A DNA stretch of 64,000 bases from positions 608,001 to 672,000 of the forward strand of contig OZ243961.1 of NCBI GenBank assembly GCA_965214605.1, in the 5' to 3' direction. Position 1 is the first letter of the stretch. Every line of letters begins with the position of its first letter. This document shows, piece after piece, positions 1 to 9,803 of this stretch. Under the pieces are notes generated by a model. It saw only the letters and a program-made list of their open reading frames with translations, made no database searches and was not told the origin of the DNA. The stretch is from an uncultured Candidatus Binatia bacterium. GTDB taxonomy: Bacteria > Desulfobacterota > Binatia > Bin18. A program made the position numbers and the translations under genes.

Positions 1-2
1 CC

Positions 3-3000
3 GCGGCCACTCGAACCTACGACATCACCGAAGGGATTTTATGCGGGAGCTTAATCGGCTTGATATGCGCTGTGCATCTGTCCGGGTTTCGCCTATTTTC
101 CAAGAGCGGGGAGACACGCCAGTTCCGAAATCGAAGTCGATATCCCGAAGACGCATTCACCAAGGCGTTCCGCGCTCATACGGAAATCATAAACCCTGAC
201 ATTACGATTCAGTCAATTGAGGCTGTCTTCGCCGCACCTCCGCGAAAGAAAATAGCCTGGTCAGCGGACACCCTTGGGAAGCGGCTGTTTCAAACCTGGA
301 ACAATCGCTCCCCAAAAGACGCAGAGAGAGAGCACCCAGAATTTTTACTGGCCCAGGGAATCGCTTGCGAAGTCGCCAAACAGTTCTCCGGATGGAAGGA
401 ACTCGCCGACAATGTAAGCGGTGCACTGGCCTGCGCTGACAGATATCTGGCGACCCTGGGAGACTCCTTTCCAAAACTCAGTAACCTGCCACCCGGAACC
501 ACGATCAATCCAGACTCTTGTACGCTTGCCTACGATCCCGAATCGCCCTTCGTTGAGATGGTTGGTAACGAAGAAAACTGGCTCCATCAGGTAGTGGCGG
601 TTTGTGCTGGCAGGCTGAAACGAGACATGCCCGATCGTGACCTATCCTCGTCTGATTTTGCAAAGCGTCTGAACGACGCTGTTGTTACTAGTCAGCACAA
701 TGGACTGTCTTGGTTATTCGGCAACGGCCTACGCTACCTTCGGAAATCAAGCATTGAGCGGATTACCGAAAACCTTGATGTTCCACACGGGAAGCGCCAA
801 CGAGTTGAACAACTCAAAGCCTTTGCCGACGCGCTTCCTGACAATCCATTTTTCGACACCAATGGCTATGCCGAGTTTCGTACCTCCGTCGGTGGCAAGA
901 TCGCCTCATGGGTCTCGAACTACTGGAAGCGCATTTGCGAACTTGCGACGTTGCATTCTCAGCCGCCGGATATCGCTATTCCCGAAACGCTGCAAGATCC
1001 CGATAACGCCTTTCTGTTTTCTGGTCAGCACACCAACGCTGCCGGCCTCATAGACCTCTCTAATCGCATCCCTGAGCGGGTCAAAAAAGCCGGCAATGCG
1101 CTTGTTGTTCTGCGTGGAAGTTGTATTCCTGGACCGGAAGATATCGCCGTCGTTGAATCCGTTGCCGATGAGATGACCGAACTCACTGGGCAACTCTCCA
1201 TGCTCGACAACCGCATTCGGCAGGAAACCGAACGCGCCAAAGACGCCGAAAACGAAAAACGTGCCAAGGTCCTAGAATCCCTCAGGCCAAACATTCCCAA
1301 AGGTCTCAAGGATCTGCCCAAACTAAACAGCATATCAGGCGGCACCGTGGACGCTACCGGTGAGATCAAACGGCTGGAAGCCGACCTGAACTCCGTCATA
1401 CGAGCACGCCGTGAGCACTTCCGGCAACTCTCTGAATGGGCGGACAGTAACGCAGGCGGCCTTGATCCCCTGCCCATCCTTAAAGAACGCGAACAAGAGG
1501 CGCTTTCCGACCGAAACATGGACCTCGATTGTGCAGCTGAATACGCTATCCGGCGTCTGCTTGATCGCATCGGCGTCATGTCGCATCGACTGTCGCCAAG
1601 TGTAGCCGAGCAAATCCGGACCGCCATGACGCCGCTTTTTCGCAGGAAAAAAGAGGCAAACCGCTACTTCTACAATCGCAACGGCAGGATCTATCGGCAT
1701 CCCTTCAGCACCTCACGTCACCAGGCTTATGCCATAGACGTAGAGCGTGCCCACGCAACCGATTGGCTCTTGTGGTTGGAGGAGCGGACGACAGAAATCC
1801 GTAACGCTCTGCGCGCGGATCAGACACGCCTACGCGATCTTCTGTTGATGGAAGCTTTTGTCCTGACGACACGGCTCGGCGGTCTCTCTGATCGTGTACC
1901 GGGGGATCTGGCGAAACCGGAAAACGACTGTCTCAACATTCCTCCCCTGCTCAAAGCGCAGCTCGAGGCTAGGGAGGTTTCGCGCGATGTGGCCGTGCGC
2001 GCCTTCAATCTGTTCAATAGTGCTATCAATGGTCTGTCGTTTCGCGCCTTCCGTGATAGTTTCATTGTTCGCGTTAAGTTTCAGCGCCAAGATCGCGAAG
2101 AAGTATTTTATGTCCCGAAGGAACGCCCCTGGCAGGCACCAGCTGACTATGATTCAGCCAAGGGTGAGATATCTAAGGGCTTGAAGCTCTCCGCAGTCGT
2201 GCGTGACCAAACCGGGGCTGTTCTGCCGCGTGAGACAGCCAAGGGCTTGAGTAAGGCGAAGTTTCCCGAGCCGGGTACGCGTGCCCTGCTGCGTCAATCG
2301 CCTCATGACTGGTTCGTCGAACTCGATGTCCGCTCTACCCAGGCTTCGGAGTTGGCAGGGCTGCCCGTCAAGAAGAACAAAGACGGACTCAAGCGCTGGA
2401 AAGTCCTGAAAAAGCCGGCCTTTCGACTAGTCGGGCCGCCCTCGTTCAAGACGCAGCTCGACCGCGCTCTGACAAGCGGAGAGGTGAAGCTCGGCGACTA
2501 CACGCTCATCATTGACCAGCTCTTCAAACAGTCCTTGTACGTCGAAGGTGAGGAGATACACCTTTTGGCTGAACCGGTAAAGATTCGGGCAGAACTGGCG
2601 GTTCCAGTAATAGACAACCGGCCGTATCCCAAGTCTGAAACCGACTTGATATTTAACAAGATCGTTGCCATAGACCTTGGCGAGCGACGGGTCGGCTACG
2701 CGGTCTTCTCGCTCATAGACTTCGTGGAAAACGGTTGCCAAAATCCGATCAAGGTGGGGAGCGTCGCCATTCCCGCTTTCAGGAAACTGATGGCCGCGGT
2801 CCGCCGCCACCGCGGGTCGCGGCAGCCCAACCAGAAGGTCGACCAAACCTACTCGAGAGCGCTGATGCAGTTCCGAGAAAACGTGGTGGGAGACGTCTGC
2901 TCTCGCATTGAGACCTTGTGCGAATACTTCGGCGGATTTCCCGTACTCGAAAGTTCGGTGGGAAATTTCGAGACAGGGGGCCGCCAGCTGGAGATGATCT

Positions 3001-3650
3001 ATGGTTCAGTCCTGCGCCGCTACACTTTCTCCGAAGTGAAAGCCCATAAAGCCACCCGTAGCCATCATTGGTTCACAGCGGACACCTGGAAGCATCCCTA
3101 CGTCTACACCTACACCTACACCTGGAATAAGAGAGAAAAGCAATATTCCGGCCCATCCAAGCCGCTGAAGATATTCCCCGGCGTCACGATCAACCCGGCC
3201 GGCACCAGCCAGACTTGCCAGCATTGTAAGCGGAATGCCCTTCAGGCGCTGCGTAACATGACGGACAAGGTCGAAGTGGGAGAAGACGGCCGCGTAGTCC
3301 TCGGAAACGGGACGATACGGCTTCTCGAACGAGCCGATTATCTTCCTTCCGAACGAAGAAAATTTCGTCACAACAAAGCAAGGCCGCCGCTAAACGTGCC
3401 TGCCCAGAAAGGATCCCGGCTAAGCCGCGACATCACGCGTATCGCCAGACGAAACATGCGGCAACCCCCATCTTCCACAATGTCACCCGATACCACACAG
3501 TCTCGCTTCAAATGCGTGTACGTTGACTGCGGCTATGAGGGGCATGCCGACGAAAATGCCGCAATTAACATCGGCCGGCGTTTTTTGGAACGGATCGATA
3601 TGGAAACGTCGAGAGGGACGTGCCGGGACTTGACCGGGCAGCGAGAATGA
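3..3650 (+). CDS. cas12c: Type V-C CRISPR effector Cas12c (C2c3), 5' end outside the window
   Basis: Frame is open from position 3 (..TYDITEGILCGSLIGLICAVHLSGFRLF), so the true start is upstream. RuvC-I IVAIDLGE (D codon 2673), RuvC-II FPVLESS (E 2949), RuvC-III GHADENAAINIGRRF (D 3549); Zn-binding CQHC and CVYVDC. Blocks LSGFRLF, NGLSWLF, FRTSVGGKIASWVSNY, LPKLNSISGG, LLRQSPHDW, FRLVGPPSFK, RENVVGDVC and PLKIFPG match my recollection of Cas12c proteins. Adjacent solo cas1 and short-spacer array fit V-C. Confidence 0.93.
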   Translation, partial: AATRTYDITEGILCGSLIGLICAVHLSGFRLFSKSGETRQFRNRSRYPEDAFTKAFRAHTEIINPDITIQSIEAVFAAPPRKKIAWSADTLGKRLFQTWNNRSPKDAEREHPEFLLAQGIACEVAKQFSGWKELADNVSGALACADRYLATLGDSFPKLSNLPPGTTINPDSCTLAYDPESPFVEMVGNEENWLHQVVAVCAGRLKRDMPDRDLSSSDFAKRLNDAVVTSQHNGLSWLFGNGLRYLRKSSIERITENLDVPHGKRQRVEQLKAFADALPDNPFFDTNGYAEFRTSVGGKIASWVSNYWKRICELATLHSQPPDIAIPETLQDPDNAFLFSGQHTNAAGLIDLSNRIPERVKKAGNALVVLRGSCIPGPEDIAVVESVADEMTELTGQLSMLDNRIRQETERAKDAENEKRAKVLESLRPNIPKGLKDLPKLNSISGGTVDATGEIKRLEADLNSVIRARREHFRQLSEWADSNAGGLDPLPILKEREQEALSDRNMDLDCAAEYAIRRLLDRIGVMSHRLSPSVAEQIRTAMTPLFRRKKEANRYFYNRNGRIYRHPFSTSRHQAYAIDVERAHATDWLLWLEERTTEIRNALRADQTRLRDLLLMEAFVLTTRLGGLSDRVPGDLAKPENDCLNIPPLLKAQLEAREVSRDVAVRAFNLFNSAINGLSFRAFRDSFIVRVKFQRQDREEVFYVPKERPWQAPADYDSAKGEISKGLKLSAVVRDQTGAVLPRETAKGLSKAKFPEPGTRALLRQSPHDWFVELDVRSTQASELAGLPVKKNKDGLKRWKVLKKPAFRLVGPPSFKTQLDRALTSGEVKLGDYTLIIDQLFKQSLYVEGEEIHLLAEPVKIRAELAVPVIDNRPYPKSETDLIFNKIVAIDLGERRVGYAVFSLIDFVENGCQNPIKVGSVAIPAFRKLMAAVRRHRGSRQPNQKVDQTYSRALMQFRENVVGDVCSRIETLCEYFGGFPVLESSVGNFETGGRQLEMIYGSVLRRYTFSEVKAHKATRSHHWFTADTWKHPYVYTYTYTWNKREKQYSGPSKPLKIFPGVTINPAGTSQTCQHCKRNALQALRNMTDKVEVGEDGRVVLGNGTIRLLERADYLPSERRKFRHNKARPPLNVPAQKGSRLSRDITRIARRNMRQPPSSTMSPDTTQSRFKCVYVDCGYEGHADENAAINIGRRFLERIDMETSRGTCRDLTGQRE
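3105..3122 (+). repeat. In-frame hexamer tandem repeat (TACACC)x3 in cas12c, encoding YTYTYT
   Basis: Read directly: tacacc tacacc tacacc. Confidence 0.85.
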
Positions 3651-3753
3651 GCCACCATCGTTCCTATTCTCTTCCAGGCCCAAGGACTTATCATCCATAC
3701 CTCAACCTGGAAGACGTCCCCGCCTCCCCGGACGCCCTTCAAAGAGGGGAGGC
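3651..3753 (+). ncRNA. Candidate scoutRNA/tracrRNA for Cas12c
   Basis: Intergenic space between cas12c and cas1. Stem TCTTCCAGG (3670-3678)/CCTGGAAGA (3706-3714) encloses ACCTCAA (3699-3705), whose CCTC is complementary to the repeat 3' GAGG. Hairpin CGTCC/GGACG is followed by CCCTTCA (3735-3741), complementary to repeat TGAAGGG. Alternative stem GCCTCCCC/GGGGAGGC (3722-3753). Confidence 0.65.
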
Positions 3754-3757
3754 ATCA

Positions 3758-4813
3758 TCACCTTACCAGCTTTGAAGAGGAATGGGAGGTAAGGGGAATA
3801 TCGCCTGGCAGCCGATAGGAGACCTTTGGCGGACGCCCGCCTTTACGTTCACCCGCGGCGGGAACGATAAACCGGCGCATGTCGCCGGCCAGGTAAGCCC
3901 GCAGCGCCAACACGCTTCCATGCAACAGATTTTTACGGCGCACAAACTGGTGGGTAGCGGGAACGTAGACAACCTTCTCCATATCGTTCTTCAGCCCGGA
4001 CAAAGTGGCTTTGGTCAGCGAGTCAGAGGCATTGTCCGGGGGATGGGTCCGGCAGGCCCCGGCAACGGCCTCTTCAATCATGTACCGGGCTGGCTCCATG
4101 AGATCGTAGACAAGTCCCATGTAGTCGGTCCCTTCATGCAGGAATCCGTGACTGGGCGAAAGCCGGTGGATTAACAACCAGCGCAAGAGTACCCCAGACA
4201 GGAACATGGACCCTGCATCAAGGGCGGCTGGTAAAGGCCCCTCCCCTCTGCGAGTGATATCAGGGTATCCCATCCGAGTGAAATATCTCCGCCAATATCT
4301 GCGTGATTGCTCGGCTTCCCAGGCCCGTATCTGTCCAAGATTCCGTGTACGCGCCAGCCGTTTGTAGACAGCGCTTGGCATGGGCAGTGTGTTCTCTACC
4401 GCCCGAAAACGTTCACGTACTAGAGTCCGCGCAATATAGGCACGTTTAGATTTATTTGTCCGGGTAACGATCTGTCTGGTCAAAATATCGTCGGCATCGA
4501 CTCTGGGAGCTGGCAAGAAAATCGCTGGGCGGCTGATGTTGCGGCGGTGAACAAGGAGGGGCACTCGGCGAAAGGCAAGTTCGTCAATGAGAGCGACCGG
4601 AATCTGGCCAGTCGCGCCGTAGAACATGATGCAATCAAGCTGCGACAGCTCAGTATCGACCTCGCCTCCGTTATATGTGAACCGCCATAAGTTCTTTTTG
4701 AGCCTTGCTACCTGAGAGACGTATGGTAGCCACAAGGTCGTCTTGCTTCTCCGCTTGGTTGATTTCCATGTCCAAAGAGAATTTGGATGTTGAAATTGAT
4801 CAATTTTAACCAT
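3758..4813 (-). CDS. cas1: CRISPR-associated integrase Cas1, type V-C-like, stand-alone
   Basis: 351 aa with catalytic-type motifs WEAEQSRRYW, PSHGFLH and LVYDLMEP; lies between cas12c and the array; no cas2 or cas4 seen. Confidence 0.92.
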   Translation of the reverse strand: MVKIDQFQHPNSLWTWKSTKRRSKTTLWLPYVSQVARLKKNLWRFTYNGGEVDTELSQLDCIMFYGATGQIPVALIDELAFRRVPLLVHRRNISRPAIFLPAPRVDADDILTRQIVTRTNKSKRAYIARTLVRERFRAVENTLPMPSAVYKRLARTRNLGQIRAWEAEQSRRYWRRYFTRMGYPDITRRGEGPLPAALDAGSMFLSGVLLRWLLIHRLSPSHGFLHEGTDYMGLVYDLMEPARYMIEEAVAGACRTHPPDNASDSLTKATLSGLKNDMEKVVYVPATHQFVRRKNLLHGSVLALRAYLAGDMRRFIVPAAGERKGGRPPKVSYRLPGDIPLTSHSSSKLVR

Positions 4814-4873
4814 ATATGTCCTCAGTAAGAAAATCGAAAAATCATTGTAATATAAATATTTATCTGGTATACC
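4814..4873 (+). promoter_or_regulatory. AT-rich CRISPR leader / divergent cas1-array promoter region
   Basis: Strongly AT-rich against a GC-rich background; TTGTAA(4845)-N17-TATACC(4868); palindromes ATAAATATTTAT (4852-4863) and GGTATACC (4866-4873). Confidence 0.7.
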
Positions 4874-5539
4874 TCCAGTTCTGAAGGGGAATTAGAGGCC
4901 GAAAAATATGAGTTCTGAAGGGGAATTAGAGGGTGTGGAGCATGACGCAATCCAGTTCTGAAGGGGAATTAGAGGCTGAAATACGGGCGTTCCTCCAGTT
5001 CTGAAGGGGAATTAGAGGTTCTCAACAGCATGAGGAGTCCAGTTCTGAAGGGGAATTAGAGGTTCTCAACAGCATGAGGAGTCCAGTTCTGAAGGGGAAT
5101 TAGAGGTTCTCAACAGCATGAGGAGTCCAGTTCTGAAGGGGAATTAGAGGTTCTCAACAGCATGAGGAGTCCAGTTCTGAAGGGGAATTAGAGGTTCTCA
5201 ACAGCATGAGGAGTCCAGTTCTGAAGGGGAATTAGAGGTTCTCAACAGCATGAGGAGTCCAGTTCTGAAGGGGAATTAGAGGTTCTCAACAGCATGAGGA
5301 GTCCAGTTCTGAAGGGGAATTAGAGGTTCTCAACAGCATGAGGAGTCCAGTTCTGAAGGGGAATTAGAGGTTCTCAACAGCATGAGGAGTCCAGCAGGGG
5401 AATTAGAGGTTCTCAACAGCATGAGGAGTCCAGTTCTGAAGGGGAATTAGAGGCACGCGCATGACGCACCCCCCAGTTCTGAAGGGGAATTAGAGGATGG
5501 AAGGCTTCGGGCTGCCCAGTTCTGAAGGGGAATTAGAGG
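4874..5539 (+). CRISPR. CRISPR array: 16 repeats (consensus TCCAGTTCTGAAGGGGAATTAGAGG, 25 nt), 15 spacers (6 distinct), mostly 18-19 nt
   Basis: Repeats start at 4874, 4911 (5'-truncated), 4951, 4994, 5038, 5082, 5126, 5170, 5214, 5258, 5302, 5346, 5390 (20-nt variant), 5429, 5472 and 5515 (last two begin CCCAG). Spacers: CCGAAAAATATG; GTGTGGAGCATGACGCAA; CTGAAATACGGGCGTTCC; TTCTCAACAGCATGAGGAG x10; CACGCGCATGACGCACCC; ATGGAAGGCTTCGGGCTG. Orientation inferred from the leader and the 3' GAGG. Confidence 0.97.
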
Positions 5540-5560
5540 CAGGGAGGGAGGGCTGGAATC

Positions 5561-6286
5561 TCATCGCTGTCCAAGTCGAATCGCCTCGGCCAGGTCTACC
5601 GCGCCGGTGTAGAGGGCGCGGCCGATAATCAGGCCGTGTATACCGTCCGCTTTACATGGCCGCAGCCGCTCAATGTCTTCAAGACTGGCCACGCCACCAG
5701 AGGCAATAACAGGAATCTGAATTGCCCGAGCCAAGAGCCGGGTGGCTTCGATATTCACCCCTAGGGATGTACCGTCACGGATAATATCGGTGTAGACAAT
5801 CTCACCAACGCCCATATCTTGGCACTGTTCGGCAAGTTGCGTCGCCTCAAGCTCAGTCGCTTCAGTCCAGCCTTGGACAGCGACTTTCCCGTCCCGGGCA
5901 TCAATGCCAACCGTAATCCGGCCCAAAAAGCGTCTACATGCCTCAGCTACAATCTGAGGCTGCCGATAGGCTACTGTGCCCAGAATTGCACGCTGTACCC
6001 CGAGTGAGAACATCTGCTCAATCGCCGCTAGGCTGCGCAGTCCACCGCCGAGCTGAACCGGAATATGTAAGGATTGGCAGATTTTTTCTATAGCGTCAGT
6101 GTTCACGCCTGCGCCTGACATGGCGCCGTCAAGATCAACTAGGTGGAGCCGAGCGGCTCCGGCGTCTTGCCAGCGCTGTGCCACGGCGACCGGATCGTCG
6201 GAGTAGATGGTCGCCTGAGCCATATCACCTTGGTAGAGACGCACACACTGACCGGCCTTGAGGTCGATGGCGGGGATAATCTCCAT
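5561..6286 (-). CDS. hisA: ProFAR isomerase HisA
   Basis: MEIIPAIDLKAGQCVRLYQG, HLVDLDGA, VQLGGGLRS, IASGGV, IIGRALY; start at ATG 6286. Confidence 0.96.
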   Translation of the reverse strand: MEIIPAIDLKAGQCVRLYQGDMAQATIYSDDPVAVAQRWQDAGAARLHLVDLDGAMSGAGVNTDAIEKICQSLHIPVQLGGGLRSLAAIEQMFSLGVQRAILGTVAYRQPQIVAEACRRFLGRITVGIDARDGKVAVQGWTEATELEATQLAEQCQDMGVGEIVYTDIIRDGTSLGVNIEATRLLARAIQIPVIASGGVASLEDIERLRPCKADGIHGLIIGRALYTGAVDLAEAIRLGQR

Positions 6287-6291
6287 AGGAA

Positions 6292-6951
6292 TCACAGAGG
6301 AGGGTGGTGGTCGGTCACAAATTTGCCGAAGTTGGCCAAGATTTGTAGGCCGACGGCCTGGCTTTTTTCTGGGTGAAATTGGGTAGCGAAGATATTGCCT
6401 GACCAAACACTCGACGCAAAATGGATGCCGTACTCGGTGGTGGTGGCCACGATGGCCGGGTCTGTTGGGATCGGATAATAGGAGTGAACAAAATACACCG
6501 CCGCGCCCTCGGGTATCTTGGCCAAATGGGGGGCTGGTCGCTCAATGTGGAGCTGGTTCCAGCCCATATGGGGGATTTTTTGTGGACCGTTGTCGGTTGT
6601 CAGCAGAGCAGGATCAAAGCGCTCGACCGTGCCTTTAAGGATGTCCAAACCTTGCTCCCGGCCAAACTCGTAACTTTCTGAAAACAGGATCTGCATACCG
6701 ACACAAATCCCAAGCAGCGGCGTGCCGCTGTTGGCCACCCGATGGACGGTTTCGATAAGCCTACATTTAGCCAGCCCGTCCATACACGCGCTAAACGCGC
6801 CCACGCCCGGCAGTACTACTCCCGCGGCAGCCTCAATGCGGGCAGCGTCCCTGGTGATTTCAGCCGGGTAGCCCATCTTCTCGCAGGCTTTTTGGACACT
6901 CCGCAGATTGCCCATACCATAGTCAATAATCGCAATTGTGCCGAGAGGCAT
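6292..6951 (-). CDS. hisH: Imidazole glycerol phosphate synthase glutaminase subunit HisH
   Basis: IIDYGMGNLRSV, LPGVGAF, LGICVGMQ, PHMGWN, YFVHSY, QFHPEKS; GGAGG RBS before ATG 6951. Confidence 0.96.
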   Translation of the reverse strand: MPLGTIAIIDYGMGNLRSVQKACEKMGYPAEITRDAARIEAAAGVVLPGVGAFSACMDGLAKCRLIETVHRVANSGTPLLGICVGMQILFSESYEFGREQGLDILKGTVERFDPALLTTDNGPQKIPHMGWNQLHIERPAPHLAKIPEGAAVYFVHSYYPIPTDPAIVATTTEYGIHFASSVWSGNIFATQFHPEKSQAVGLQILANFGKFVTDHHPPL

Positions 6952-6977
6952 TCTCTCTCCTCCGCTCCCTCCCTCTC

Positions 6978-7001
6978 CCTCTAATTCCCCTTCGGAGCTG
7001 G
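6978..7001 (-). repeat. Isolated inverted copy of the CRISPR repeat in the hisH 5' region (anti-repeat on the + strand)
   Basis: + strand CCTCTAATTCCCCTTCGGAGCTGG = minus strand CCAGCTCCGAAGGGGAATTAGAGG, 22/24 identical to CCAGTTCTGAAGGGGAATTAGAGG. Confidence 0.93.
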
Positions 7002-7031
7002 CCAGAGATATAGGTATAGGGCATAGGACAT

Positions 7032-7063
7032 CGGCTATTTCACAATCACACTGCAAAATAGCC
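7032..7063. other. Inverted repeat/hairpin CGGCTATTT...AAATAGCCG between the gst gene and the orphan repeat
   Basis: Perfect 9-bp stem read directly; could be a terminator, an operator, or the 3' hairpin of a small RNA. Confidence 0.5.
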
Positions 7064-7085
7064 GTGTATTAAAGTGGCGTGTTGT

Positions 7086-7808
7086 CTATTCCGGAACCGG
7101 CCGCGCCCGCTGGTTGTAGAGCATCTTGCGCAGGCGGTCTTTCTCTTCCTGCGACAGCTTGGAGAAGTCCATGGACAGCTCGCTGCCAACGGCCATGCCT
7201 TTTTTCACCCCGTCCCGTTCCGAGAGTTCCTCAAACCAGCGTTTGAAATATTTAAACTCGTTGATGTCCTGTCCCTGGGCCTCCCAGCTGACCGTCCAGG
7301 GATAACAAATCATATCGGCGATCGTATACTCATCACCGGCCAGATAAGGCTGCCGATAGAGCTGATTATTTAAGACGCCAAACAGACGGTTGACCTCATC
7401 TGTGAAACGCCGCACTGCATATGTCTGATCACCCTGTTCATCGCCCAAGCGCCGAAAATGACCACACTCTCCGCTTTTGGGGCCTTGGTTGGCCATCTGC
7501 CACATGACCCACTGGTTGACGACGTAACGCCCCCGCACGTCTTGGGGATAGAACTTGCCGGCCTTCTCGGCAATATACATCATCATTGCTCCAGATTCAA
7601 AAATACTGATCGGCTCGCCCCCGCCCAAGGGATCGTGGTCGACCATGGCGGGCATCCGGTTGTTAGGACAGATCTGTAGAAATTCGTCCGTGAACTGATC
7701 TCCACGGCCAATGTTGCAGGGGATCATATTGTAGGCTATGTCACACTCTTCGAGCAGAATAGTCACCTTTTTGCCGTTTGGCGTGGGCCAATAGTGTAAG
7801 TCAATCAT
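7086..7808 (-). CDS. Glutathione S-transferase, YfcG/YghU-like (Nu class)
   Basis: YWPTPNGKKV, PNNRMPAMVD, IFESGA, YTIADMICYPW. Confidence 0.9.
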   Translation of the reverse strand: MIDLHYWPTPNGKKVTILLEECDIAYNMIPCNIGRGDQFTDEFLQICPNNRMPAMVDHDPLGGGEPISIFESGAMMMYIAEKAGKFYPQDVRGRYVVNQWVMWQMANQGPKSGECGHFRRLGDEQGDQTYAVRRFTDEVNRLFGVLNNQLYRQPYLAGDEYTIADMICYPWTVSWEAQGQDINEFKYFKRWFEELSERDGVKKGMAVGSELSMDFSKLSQEEKDRLRKMLYNQRARPVPE

Positions 7809-7937
7809 GCTGCGTACCTCCTTTTTTCCGATATCGACCGACCGGACGTTATGCCACCCTACACCGATTCGACTGACTGGAACAAGCAGGTCTGGATGCG
7901 CAAGCGCCGGGATCTTGCCTGTCGCCGAGCGAACGGC

Positions 7938-8540
7938 TTACGCATCTGTCCACTCGGTATTCCAGCGTGGAAAAAAACGCGGCACCCGCCGGCAGTATGC
8001 AGCATAGGCCTGGCCAAAACGCTGGTGTAATTCCCGCTCTTCAAACACGACAATCACATACAACAGGGGCAGACTCAGTGCCGCCCATACGTATAAGATC
8101 AGATAATTGGCCACAAAGGCGAAGCCTAGCACTGATAGAAACACTTCTAGATAGCGCGGGTGTCGTATCCGGGCATAAATCCCCTCCTGTAACAAGCTGG
8201 ACGGTTGGCTCTGAGAGCGCAGTTCGGGGAGACCGATCATGATACGCAGGGTCAAATATTTGCGGTGCTGGAGTGCAAGCGCGCCTGCTCCGCTCAGACA
8301 CACTACGGCCAGTCCCAGACAGACGGCGTTTGTCTCGTACTTGGTGGCCAACAGCGCACCGCGAACTACAAACAGGCCTCCGCCAAGCATGCTCAGCTCG
8401 GCTCCCACCAGACCATACGTCCAGCCCACCCCCCGTTTACGCCAAAATTCGGCAAAAGGGTGGATGCACAGCCAGAACAACAGCCCCGGCGGGAGGCCGA
8501 TCAGAAACGCGAACGCAATCCCGTAGCGCAACTCATCCAT
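7938..8540 (-). CDS. Isoprenylcysteine carboxylmethyltransferase/PEMT-family membrane protein
   Basis: TM helices; GIYARIRHPRY, EERELHQRFGQAYAAYCRRVPRFFP; start placed at ATG 8540. Confidence 0.85.
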   Translation of the reverse strand: MDELRYGIAFAFLIGLPPGLLFWLCIHPFAEFWRKRGVGWTYGLVGAELSMLGGGLFVVRGALLATKYETNAVCLGLAVVCLSGAGALALQHRKYLTLRIMIGLPELRSQSQPSSLLQEGIYARIRHPRYLEVFLSVLGFAFVANYLILYVWAALSLPLLYVIVVFEERELHQRFGQAYAAYCRRVPRFFPRWNTEWTDA

Positions 8541-8747
8541 TAGGTGCACGCCGACCCTCCGCTCCCAACCGACCGCAAGGTCCCCAACTCCATAACAGCC
8601 GATATCACCATTCCTAGGTATGAAGCACCCCCCAATCAGCCCGAGACACCAGGCGGCCTGCCTCCCTCCCCTTGTCTCTTCCCAGATCAGAATAGTACAA
8701 CCGCTTAGAAGACAACATCTTGTTGCGGACATCCGAGATTGGAGGAT

Positions 8748-9803
8748 ATGATGCTGAGGGCACTTGCAGTGTGTAGCGGAAAAGGTGGTGTAGGCAAAAC
8801 GCTGTTATCGGCCAGTCTGGCCCGGATTATTCAGCAAGCAGAAAACTGCAACGTCTTGGCAGTCGATTTAGACCTAACAGTCAGTGGGCTAACCCTCTTG
8901 TCGTTTCACAATAAACTTGAGCTTGATCAAGTCCCAATCTCACTCTTTGACTACCTGACCGGTGATGACAATGCCCAAAGTGCGCTGTTCGGAGCCTTAC
9001 AGGCCGCCGTCACATCAAGGGGCGAATATCCTTCGGCCGTGCTCTACCAGCGTCTAGATCACGTTTTTGTCCTGCCCGCCTCCACAGAAAGTGAGCGTCC
9101 GGACTGGAGCCGGTCTGCCCAGATTGAACTCGACCTGGCGATTGAAAAAATTGCCCAGCTGCGACATTTTGCCGCTGAGTCGCTGGACATCGACTATCTG
9201 ATTTTTGATACTCAAGCTGGCTTGGGCAGCCTCAGTCTGGCCGCGGCAACGCTCAGCGATATGACCCTTATCGTGATGGAAGAAGACGATATCAGCTGGT
9301 TCACCGCGCTGCGCATGTTCACCGAAATTACCGAGTTGAACAGACGCCTCAAAAACCGCTCGCGCAGCTACTTCCTGGCCAACAAAGTCCAAGCTGGGCT
9401 GATGGATATGGCCAGCAAACTGAAAGCCTTTTCCTTTCTGCCACCGATCCCGTTCGATAGCTGGATGCAGCGTCTGGTGTCGAACTCGACCGCCGTTGTC
9501 CTTGAAAAAGAGTTTGAAGACAGCGACTTCTTTCGTCGTTTACAAACCCGGGTGTGGCGAGAAATGGCCAGCCTTTTTGGACTCAGCCAGAGTCCCCAAA
9601 AAAATGCCTCGTTTAGCTGGTGGCGGCAGCTCAAGGGACCGGTCGAGCCAATGCCGAAAGCCAAGCCCACAGCGTCGTCCCCCCCTCCCCGCCTCAGCCC
9701 GAATTTCCAGAACAGTCAGCCAGAAAAAACCACGCCCTCCGCCGCCAAAGCCCAGCCTGCTGACCAACCTCACCGGTTAGACGTCAAAAGTGAAGTCCGT
9801 TGA
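8748..9803 (+). CDS. ParA/MinD-family P-loop ATPase with Pro-rich C-terminal tail
   Basis: Deviant Walker A SGKGGVGKT, AVDLDL, DYLIFDT; GGAGG RBS. Confidence 0.8.
   Translation: MMLRALAVCSGKGGVGKTLLSASLARIIQQAENCNVLAVDLDLTVSGLTLLSFHNKLELDQVPISLFDYLTGDDNAQSALFGALQAAVTSRGEYPSAVLYQRLDHVFVLPASTESERPDWSRSAQIELDLAIEKIAQLRHFAAESLDIDYLIFDTQAGLGSLSLAAATLSDMTLIVMEEDDISWFTALRMFTEITELNRRLKNRSRSYFLANKVQAGLMDMASKLKAFSFLPPIPFDSWMQRLVSNSTAVVLEKEFEDSDFFRRLQTRVWREMASLFGLSQSPQKNASFSWWRQLKGPVEPMPKAKPTASSPPPRLSPNFQNSQPEKTTPSAAKAQPADQPHRLDVKSEVR

Follow-up and report, generated by a model that had tools for sequence, protein, structure and literature searches.

The stretch of DNA analysed here, 64,000 nucleotides (nt) long and called the window below, corresponds to positions C1:608001-672000 of G000, the genome of an uncultured Candidatus Binatia bacterium (4.37 Mb in nine contigs, 99.99% complete). 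Its 5' end carries what is very probably a complete chromosomal type V-C CRISPR-Cas system. A thiolase gene is followed by cas12c on the plus strand, a putative gene for a trans-activating CRISPR RNA (tracrRNA, or scoutRNA), cas1 on the minus strand, a leader and the CRISPR array, beyond which lie hisF and hisH. Five features place the locus in type V-C: the Cas12c profile match, the RuvC D/E/D residues together with the zinc domain, adaptation by cas1 only, 25-nt repeats with 18-19-nt spacers, and the putative tracrRNA. Judged by their sequences, the parts are intact and fit one another: Cas12c has its RuvC triad and zinc finger and the solo Cas1 its catalytic motifs, and they are joined by a conserved leader, an array and a conserved structured RNA gene.

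A preliminary description, made from the letters of the window, had reported the effector, a convergent cas1, a leader and a short-spacer array, had named the architecture as type V-C, and had placed it among chromosomal housekeeping genes. The genome sequence bears this out, with the thiolase gene and hisF/hisH as flanks and with the solo cas1, the 25-nt repeat, the short spacers and the putative tracrRNA all in place. The host, described there as high in GC, has a measured GC content of 58%.

The Cas12c effector

1-3650, plus strand: cas12c, whose stop codon ends at 3650; the true start is at G000:C1:607865, 135 nt before the window, and the product is P0003 (1261 amino acids)
2674-2676, 2950-2952 and 3550-3552, plus strand: codons of the RuvC catalytic residues D937, E1029 and D1229, respectively
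3217-3531, plus strand: stretch holding the codons of the zinc cysteines C1118, C1121, C1217 and C1222

Within the window the cas12c frame (3-3650, plus strand) is open at the 5' edge. The upstream sequence, whose recovery the preliminary description had proposed, supplies the ATG, with AGGAGAG before it, and shows the N-terminus to be intact; P0003 is uninterrupted and there are no stops inside the profile match. Against a cut-off of 250, the NCBIfam Cas12c profile NF033950 gives 1037.5 bits for the part in the window, which spans model positions 39-1244 of 1246, and 1072.6 bits over positions 1-1244 for the full gene in the genome. A match to the Pfam domain Cas12f1-like_TNB (33.8 bits) is also found. 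When P0003 is aligned with 16 relatives (28-72% identity), the three RuvC residues and the four zinc cysteines, motifs already noticed in the window, prove invariant in all 17 Cas12c proteins.

In type V-D systems, too, Cas1 stands alone, a scoutRNA is present and the spacers measure 17-19 nt. With so similar an architecture, the effector might be a Cas12d (CasY) and the locus of type V-D, and weak Cas12d matches are indeed obtained, both in PADLOC (44 bits) and with the NCBIfam profile NF033951 (100 bits). The latter score, however, lies under its cut-off of 250, comes from the C-terminal RuvC part only and is tenfold lower than that of the Cas12c profile, which is spanned almost completely; the PADLOC Cas12c models reach 1268 bits. 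The two best matches in the PDB are Cas12c2 (7v93; E = 1e-146, 494 bits, ∼1190 residues) and Cas12c1 (7vyx; E = 2.6e-119, 403 bits), and no Cas12d chain is among the five sequences matched up to E = 1. The comparison of Cas12c and Cas12d hidden Markov models that had been suggested for this protein is thus clearly decided for Cas12c in both collections, and a V-D identity is refuted by the profile scores and PDB matches; we put its probability close to nil.

Cas12c2 (also Cas12c_4; PMC9522604; preprint 10.1101/2021.12.06.471469) aligns with P0003 over its full length, at an identity of ∼30% that is estimated from database hits of similar score rather than measured. Cas12c1 (PMC9723637) belongs to the same family and is also matched over its full length, but is more distant from P0003 than Cas12c2, as the bit scores show. 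In the alignments D937 corresponds to D928, the catalytic residue of Cas12c2, and to the D969A site of Cas12c1, at the same RuvC-I motif position, and the zinc cysteines of Cas12c2 are kept as well. According to PMC9522604, R137 and R351 of Cas12c2 read the thymine of the protospacer-adjacent motif (PAM). We mapped the PAM residues by hand on the PDB alignment, whose chain numbering is offset by 14 (checked via D928, which is D942 of the chain). By this mapping both arginines are kept in P0003, R137 as R127 and R351 as R339, and S294 remains a serine, whereas T291 of the PAM pocket is replaced by asparagine. R339 is also nearly invariant in the 17-protein alignment.

At these scores P0003 is far from both solved enzymes. 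Membership of another Cas12 subtype, a disrupted upstream part and near-identity to a characterised Cas12c had been named as outcomes that would overturn the preliminary description; none of the three occurred.

According to PMC9522604, Cas12c1 cleaves DNA in vitro, whereas Cas12c2 and OspCas12c do not. DNA binding without DNase activity has been demonstrated for Cas12c2; P0003 may cut DNA, as Cas12c1 does, or only bind it, as Cas12c2 does. The origins differ too: Cas12c was first found in marine or gut metagenomes, whereas the gene described here belongs to a soil-type Binatia genome.

The putative tracrRNA gene

A standard annotation pipeline would already name the locus as type V-C. What is new in this analysis is the location of a putative tracrRNA gene between cas12c and cas1, with the following elements.

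3666-3741, plus strand: putative tracrRNA core, a conserved block between cas12c and cas1 (end positions approximate)
3666-3669, plus strand: anti-repeat 1, ATTC, complementary to repeat positions 16-19
3670-3678 and 3706-3714, plus strand: arms of stem 1, nine pairs
3700-3703, plus strand: dock, CCTC, complementary to repeat positions 22-25
3715-3719 and 3730-3734, plus strand: arms of stem 3, five pairs
3735-3741, plus strand: anti-repeat 3, CCCTTCA, complementary to repeat positions 9-15

Of the non-coding parts of the locus, the 107-nt gap between the stop codons of cas12c and cas1 is the one best conserved in six relatives. Across nine sequences, the 14 pairs of the two stems are paired in 122 of 122 cells, with four pairs altered on both sides. 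The resulting covariation score was reached by none of 500 shuffles, and partners that were slid out of register pair in 29-55% of cells. G-U pairs arise only in the plus-strand reading (the other strand would give A-C mismatches), indicating that the RNA would be made from the cas12c strand. The folding z-score of the RNA alone is -2.6.

Pairing between the putative tracrRNA and the repeat is kept at 15 of 15 pairs in all eight loci with arrays, and a change in the repeat is compensated in the tracrRNA at repeat position 11 (loci L003 and L006), position 18 (L004 and L005), position 16 (L037 and L039) and position 14 (L039). L003 and L006, matched by coordinates, are the loci of genomes G035 and G014, both in the family of the host, which places the host within the Binatia. 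A covariance model finds the same RNA directly 3' of cas12c, on the same strand, in eight further metagenome loci, whose proteins are down to ∼30% identical. No Rfam family was matched in window positions 1-9000 at E values up to 1, and the tracrRNA is therefore not a curated family.

The elements follow one another as in the guide scaffold of Cas12c2 described in PMC9522604, from the first anti-repeat through stem 1, with the dock between its arms, and stem 3 to the last anti-repeat; in that X-junction scaffold, too, the repeat is contacted by three short segments placed around stems 1 and 3. The register nevertheless differs slightly: the anti-repeat contacts of Cas12c2 are at repeat positions -18 to -12 and -11 to -8, whereas those predicted here are at -17 to -11 and -10 to -7, one nucleotide nearer the spacer.

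A scan for terminators gave none at the leader or the tracrRNA. Upstream of the tracrRNA a weak promoter candidate can be seen by eye, TTGACC at 3630-3635 and, 17 nt further on, CACCAT.

The region upstream of cas12c was also considered as the site of the tracrRNA and rejected, since it is not conserved among six loci and is a single-copy 1.2-kb stretch whose open reading frames have no Pfam match. Conservation is confined to the final ∼90 nt in front of the cas12c start. The ∼1.1 kb between the thiolase gene and cas12c (C1:606631-607780) is single-copy, contains no recognisable gene and is absent from G006 and G007, two genomes of the same genus, in which the gap measures ∼220 nt.

Cas1, leader and array

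3758-4813, minus strand: cas1 (351 amino acids), convergent with cas12c and the sole adaptation gene of the locus
4814-4873, no strand assigned: leader, 60 nt, AT-rich, from the cas1 start to repeat 1, with the motif TTG[T/A]AATATA
4874-5539, plus strand: CRISPR array, 16 repeats of 25 nt
6976-7000, minus strand: detached degenerate terminal repeat (two mismatches), just upstream of the hisH start and at the far end of the inverted hisH-hisF

Cas1 is divergent (Pfam Cas_Cas1, 51.9 bits; PADLOC, 81.4 bits), and its E168, H226 and D237 motifs align to a solved Cas1. The locus holds neither cas2 nor cas4, in agreement with the preliminary description; all matches to these families in the genome (seven Cas2, one Cas4) are at least 77 kb away, and the nearest cas1-cas2 pair (C1:530,090-531,294) is ∼77 kb off. 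As reported from Wright 2019 in PMC6977970, V-C Cas1 integrates spacers without Cas2 and is less site-specific. This 'mini-integrase' resembles the present one in being a lone Cas1 beside a 25-bp repeat target with short spacers. Elsewhere in the host genome, however, there are three complete cas1-cas2 pairs (C1, 0.530, 1.690 and 3.929 Mb), one of them with cas4, so that in this cell the Cas1 of the locus may not be independent of Cas2. Remnants of cas1 or cas2 lie at 2.308, 3.262 and 3.644 Mb of C1, and the host is rich in CRISPR-Cas systems.

The 60-bp leader noticed between cas1 and the array is conserved across six loci. The repeat reads [T/C]CCAGTTCTGAAGGGGAATTAGAGG (25 nt) and is intact in 14 of its 16 copies. 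Arrays of the same repeat with 18-nt spacers are present in five genome loci, and the 52 metagenome loci include 27 arrays, all with a period of 42-44 nt, 22 of which were called with 25-nt repeats and 17-19-nt spacers; Cas12c2 also has a 25-nt repeat and 17-19-nt spacers. The claim that the locus has a repeat of its own does not hold, as relatives carry the same repeat with one to three changes. Position 1 of the repeat is T in most units (4874, 4951 and 4994 onward), C in the two leader-distal units (5472 and 5515) and G in the detached terminal repeat, as if it had changed step by step from one part of the array to the next.

The array contains 15 inter-repeat stretches: ten copies of one 19-nt spacer, four unique 18-nt spacers and a 12-nt stub. 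The spacer lengths of 18-19 nt given in the preliminary description stand, but they belong to only five distinct normal spacers, with ten of the 15 stretches identical. The ten copies begin between 5019 and 5410 (window 5019-5428) and form 44-nt tandem units. Two places are irregular. The stretch after repeat 1 is the 12-nt stub, and repeat 2 behind it lacks its first 3 nt; in repeat 13 (5390-5409), 6 nt are replaced by 1 nt, and the tenth spacer copy comes after it.

Since tandem arrays are hard to assemble, the tenfold spacer and the irregular units could be assembly errors over a 44-nt tandem repeat. Duplicate spacers, however, are also seen in arrays that were assembled independently, those of G006 (in the order A-B-A-B next to the leader) and G007, and in five of the 27 metagenome arrays, although fewer than five of these metagenome cases may be independent, as L069 and L074 have a repeat and a duplicated spacer in common, and so do L054 and L059. 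None of these duplicates is amplified tenfold. Moreover, the repeat just before the tenth copy bears damage that no other repeat has, which a collapse or expansion artefact would not produce, and we consider an assembly error quite unlikely.

We found no published report joining Cas12c with spacer duplication. The tenfold spacer, taken together with the recurrent duplications in the V-C arrays of the sister species, might be a selected dosage device: a binding-only effector would need more guide per target, and with one spacer amplified a single persistent element or a host gene would be silenced more strongly. We regard this as very unlikely. A companion idea, weaker still, is that the near-match in a squalene-hopene cyclase gene described below marks self-regulation by a binding-only Cas12c.

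The lower site-specificity of V-C Cas1 would fit the malformed units found here and in L004; integration by Cas1 alone may be characterised by such irregularities. In L004, the locus of a Bryobacterales relative, the malformed array unit (L004:11180-11250) consists of a spacer of ∼4 nt and a truncated repeat.

In the host genome no exact match to a spacer was found outside the array. The spacer at 5497-5514 differs at a single position from C1:3815640-3815657 (minus strand), which lies in a squalene-hopene cyclase gene and has TT on its 5' side. A comparable one-mismatch self-match is given by 4.6% of 2000 shuffled spacer sets, and the match is therefore probably due to chance. Three of the five distinct spacers were scanned against IMG/VR: two had no match, and the third gave a single exact 18-nt match in a contig of 41.5% GC, preceded by CG and with no T at -2. 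This match, too, is probably due to chance.

At the leader-distal end of the array, hisH-hisF (window 5540-7000) is inverted relative to G006 and G007, in which the ancestral order array-hisH-hisF-GST is present. The minus-strand terminal repeat before the hisH start shows that one breakpoint of this inversion lay inside the array.

An orphan remnant of a second V-C adaptation end lies elsewhere on the contig, at C1:176170-176512. Besides ∼95 cas1 codons and the leader it holds two repeats with a single 19-nt spacer; its identity to window 4601-4932 is 89.5%. A role for these short units as a regulatory mini-array is unsupported, the longest match of the orphan spacer or the 12-nt stub to the non-coding parts of the locus being no more than 9 nt.

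Relatives, descent and decay

The effector has 74 database relatives, ∼47 of them at 54-72% identity (the best at 72%) and the rest at 45% or less; one relative, at 66%, is named 'Cas12c [Desulfurellaceae bacterium]' by NCBI. The preliminary description had taken the protein for a new ortholog. This stands, Cas12c2 and Cas12c1 being distant, but the novelty was overstated. P0003 is a new ortholog of a known kind, in an ordinary type V-C system, and its novelty is modest, because the closest database proteins are 71-72% identical, the 66% relative already bears the name Cas12c, and the repeat is common to relatives. No published report joining Cas12c with Binatia was found, and supplementary tables may list orthologs of the clade.

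Five species-representative genomes carry relatives at 62-74% protein identity (two Candidatus Binatia, one Nitrospirales and two Bryobacterales). They form part of an unstudied Cas12c clade in metagenome-assembled genomes and have in common with the present locus the gene order, the leader motif, the tracrRNA and a nearly identical repeat. The locus nevertheless differs from this clade in several ways. Position 1 of its repeat is T or C, whereas the consensus has G in seven of eight clade relatives with arrays and A in the remaining one (L034), and it is the only copy with a tenfold spacer, an inverted hisH-hisF at the array end and a unique 1.1-kb insert upstream.

G006 and G007 have thiolase-cas12c-cas1-array-his-GST at the same place as G000. 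For each gene we compared G000 and G006 by protein identity, by synonymous divergence (dS) and by the ratio of nonsynonymous to synonymous divergence (dN/dS).

Thiolase gene: identity 93%, dS 0.66, dN/dS 0.054
cas12c: identity 71.5%, dS 0.70, dN/dS 0.254
cas1: identity 87%, dS 0.58, dN/dS 0.116
GST: identity 92%, dS 0.76, dN/dS 0.055

Since dS is similar across the four genes (0.58-0.76), the locus descended together with its neighbours and was inherited vertically within the host genus. By the same comparison, cas12c is under purifying selection that is weaker than that on its neighbours, and evolves ∼5 times faster than the flanks. No spacer is common to the arrays of G000, G006 and G007, indicating that the arrays turned over after the species split.

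Several observations weigh against a complete type V-C system at this locus. R127, one of the two presumed PAM-reading arginines, is absent from the invariant or nearly invariant columns of the 17-protein alignment. No convincing target was found in the self-scan of the host genome or for the three spacers scanned against IMG/VR. A scan for sigma-70-like promoters was negative at the leader and before the tracrRNA; the region yielded two such sites where 1.4 would be expected, and both fall within cas1. With five distinct normal spacers, a stub unit by the leader and a damaged repeat, the array looks battered, which makes recent adaptation in this genome doubtful. Finally, the copies of relatives are often broken. 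Among 61 genomes of host relatives (G000 included), six have effector matches over the cut-off, all in the host family; cas12c is broken in three of the five others (G007, G014 and G033), and one further genome, G034, retains a 57-residue remnant. The system is thus easily lost.

Alternatively, the genes may be intact but the system retired, its array a decaying relic that serves neither acquisition nor defence and is heading towards the pseudogene state of the relatives. The ten copies of one spacer, the malformed leader-proximal unit, the damaged repeat 13 and the terminal repeat moved by the inversion would agree with this, as would the broken cas12c copies, the truncation of cas1 in L003 and its frameshift in G033, and the fivefold dN/dS of cas12c relative to the flanks. 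However, neither cas12c nor cas1 is shortened and both retain every catalytic residue, a dN/dS of 0.25 still indicates purifying selection, and the tracrRNA, the leader and most repeats are intact. The arrays of the three genomes of the genus, moreover, have turned over since the species split. We therefore regard retirement as unlikely on balance and retain the reading of a complete V-C system.

By analogy with the studied Cas12c enzymes, such a system would work as follows. The array would be transcribed from the conserved leader, the tracrRNA would pair with each repeat, and the RuvC site of Cas12c would cut the precursor CRISPR RNA at the 3' side of the spacer. The complex would find DNA beside a PAM with T at -2, the T being read by R127 and R339, and would then block or cut the target. 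Cas1 alone would add spacers of ∼18 bp at the leader-proximal repeat.

Cas12c effectors are rare and use a PAM of one or two bases, and at least some of them silence DNA without cutting it. To our knowledge, studies cover only three closely sampled Cas12c enzymes, which come from marine and gut metagenomes. Nothing here changes what is known of type V-C, and only two features might be worth taking further, the amplified spacer and the higher evolutionary rate of the effector. The locus represents a distinct clade on complete chromosomes with a known host lineage, and with protein, tracrRNA, repeat and leader mapped, all parts for rebuilding it are at hand; it could serve as a further ortholog for the question of cutting versus binding only and for Cas1-only integration. 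The comparison within the genus shows that loci of this kind are inherited with their neighbours, that their effector outpaces the genes beside it about fivefold in evolutionary rate, and that they frequently decay.

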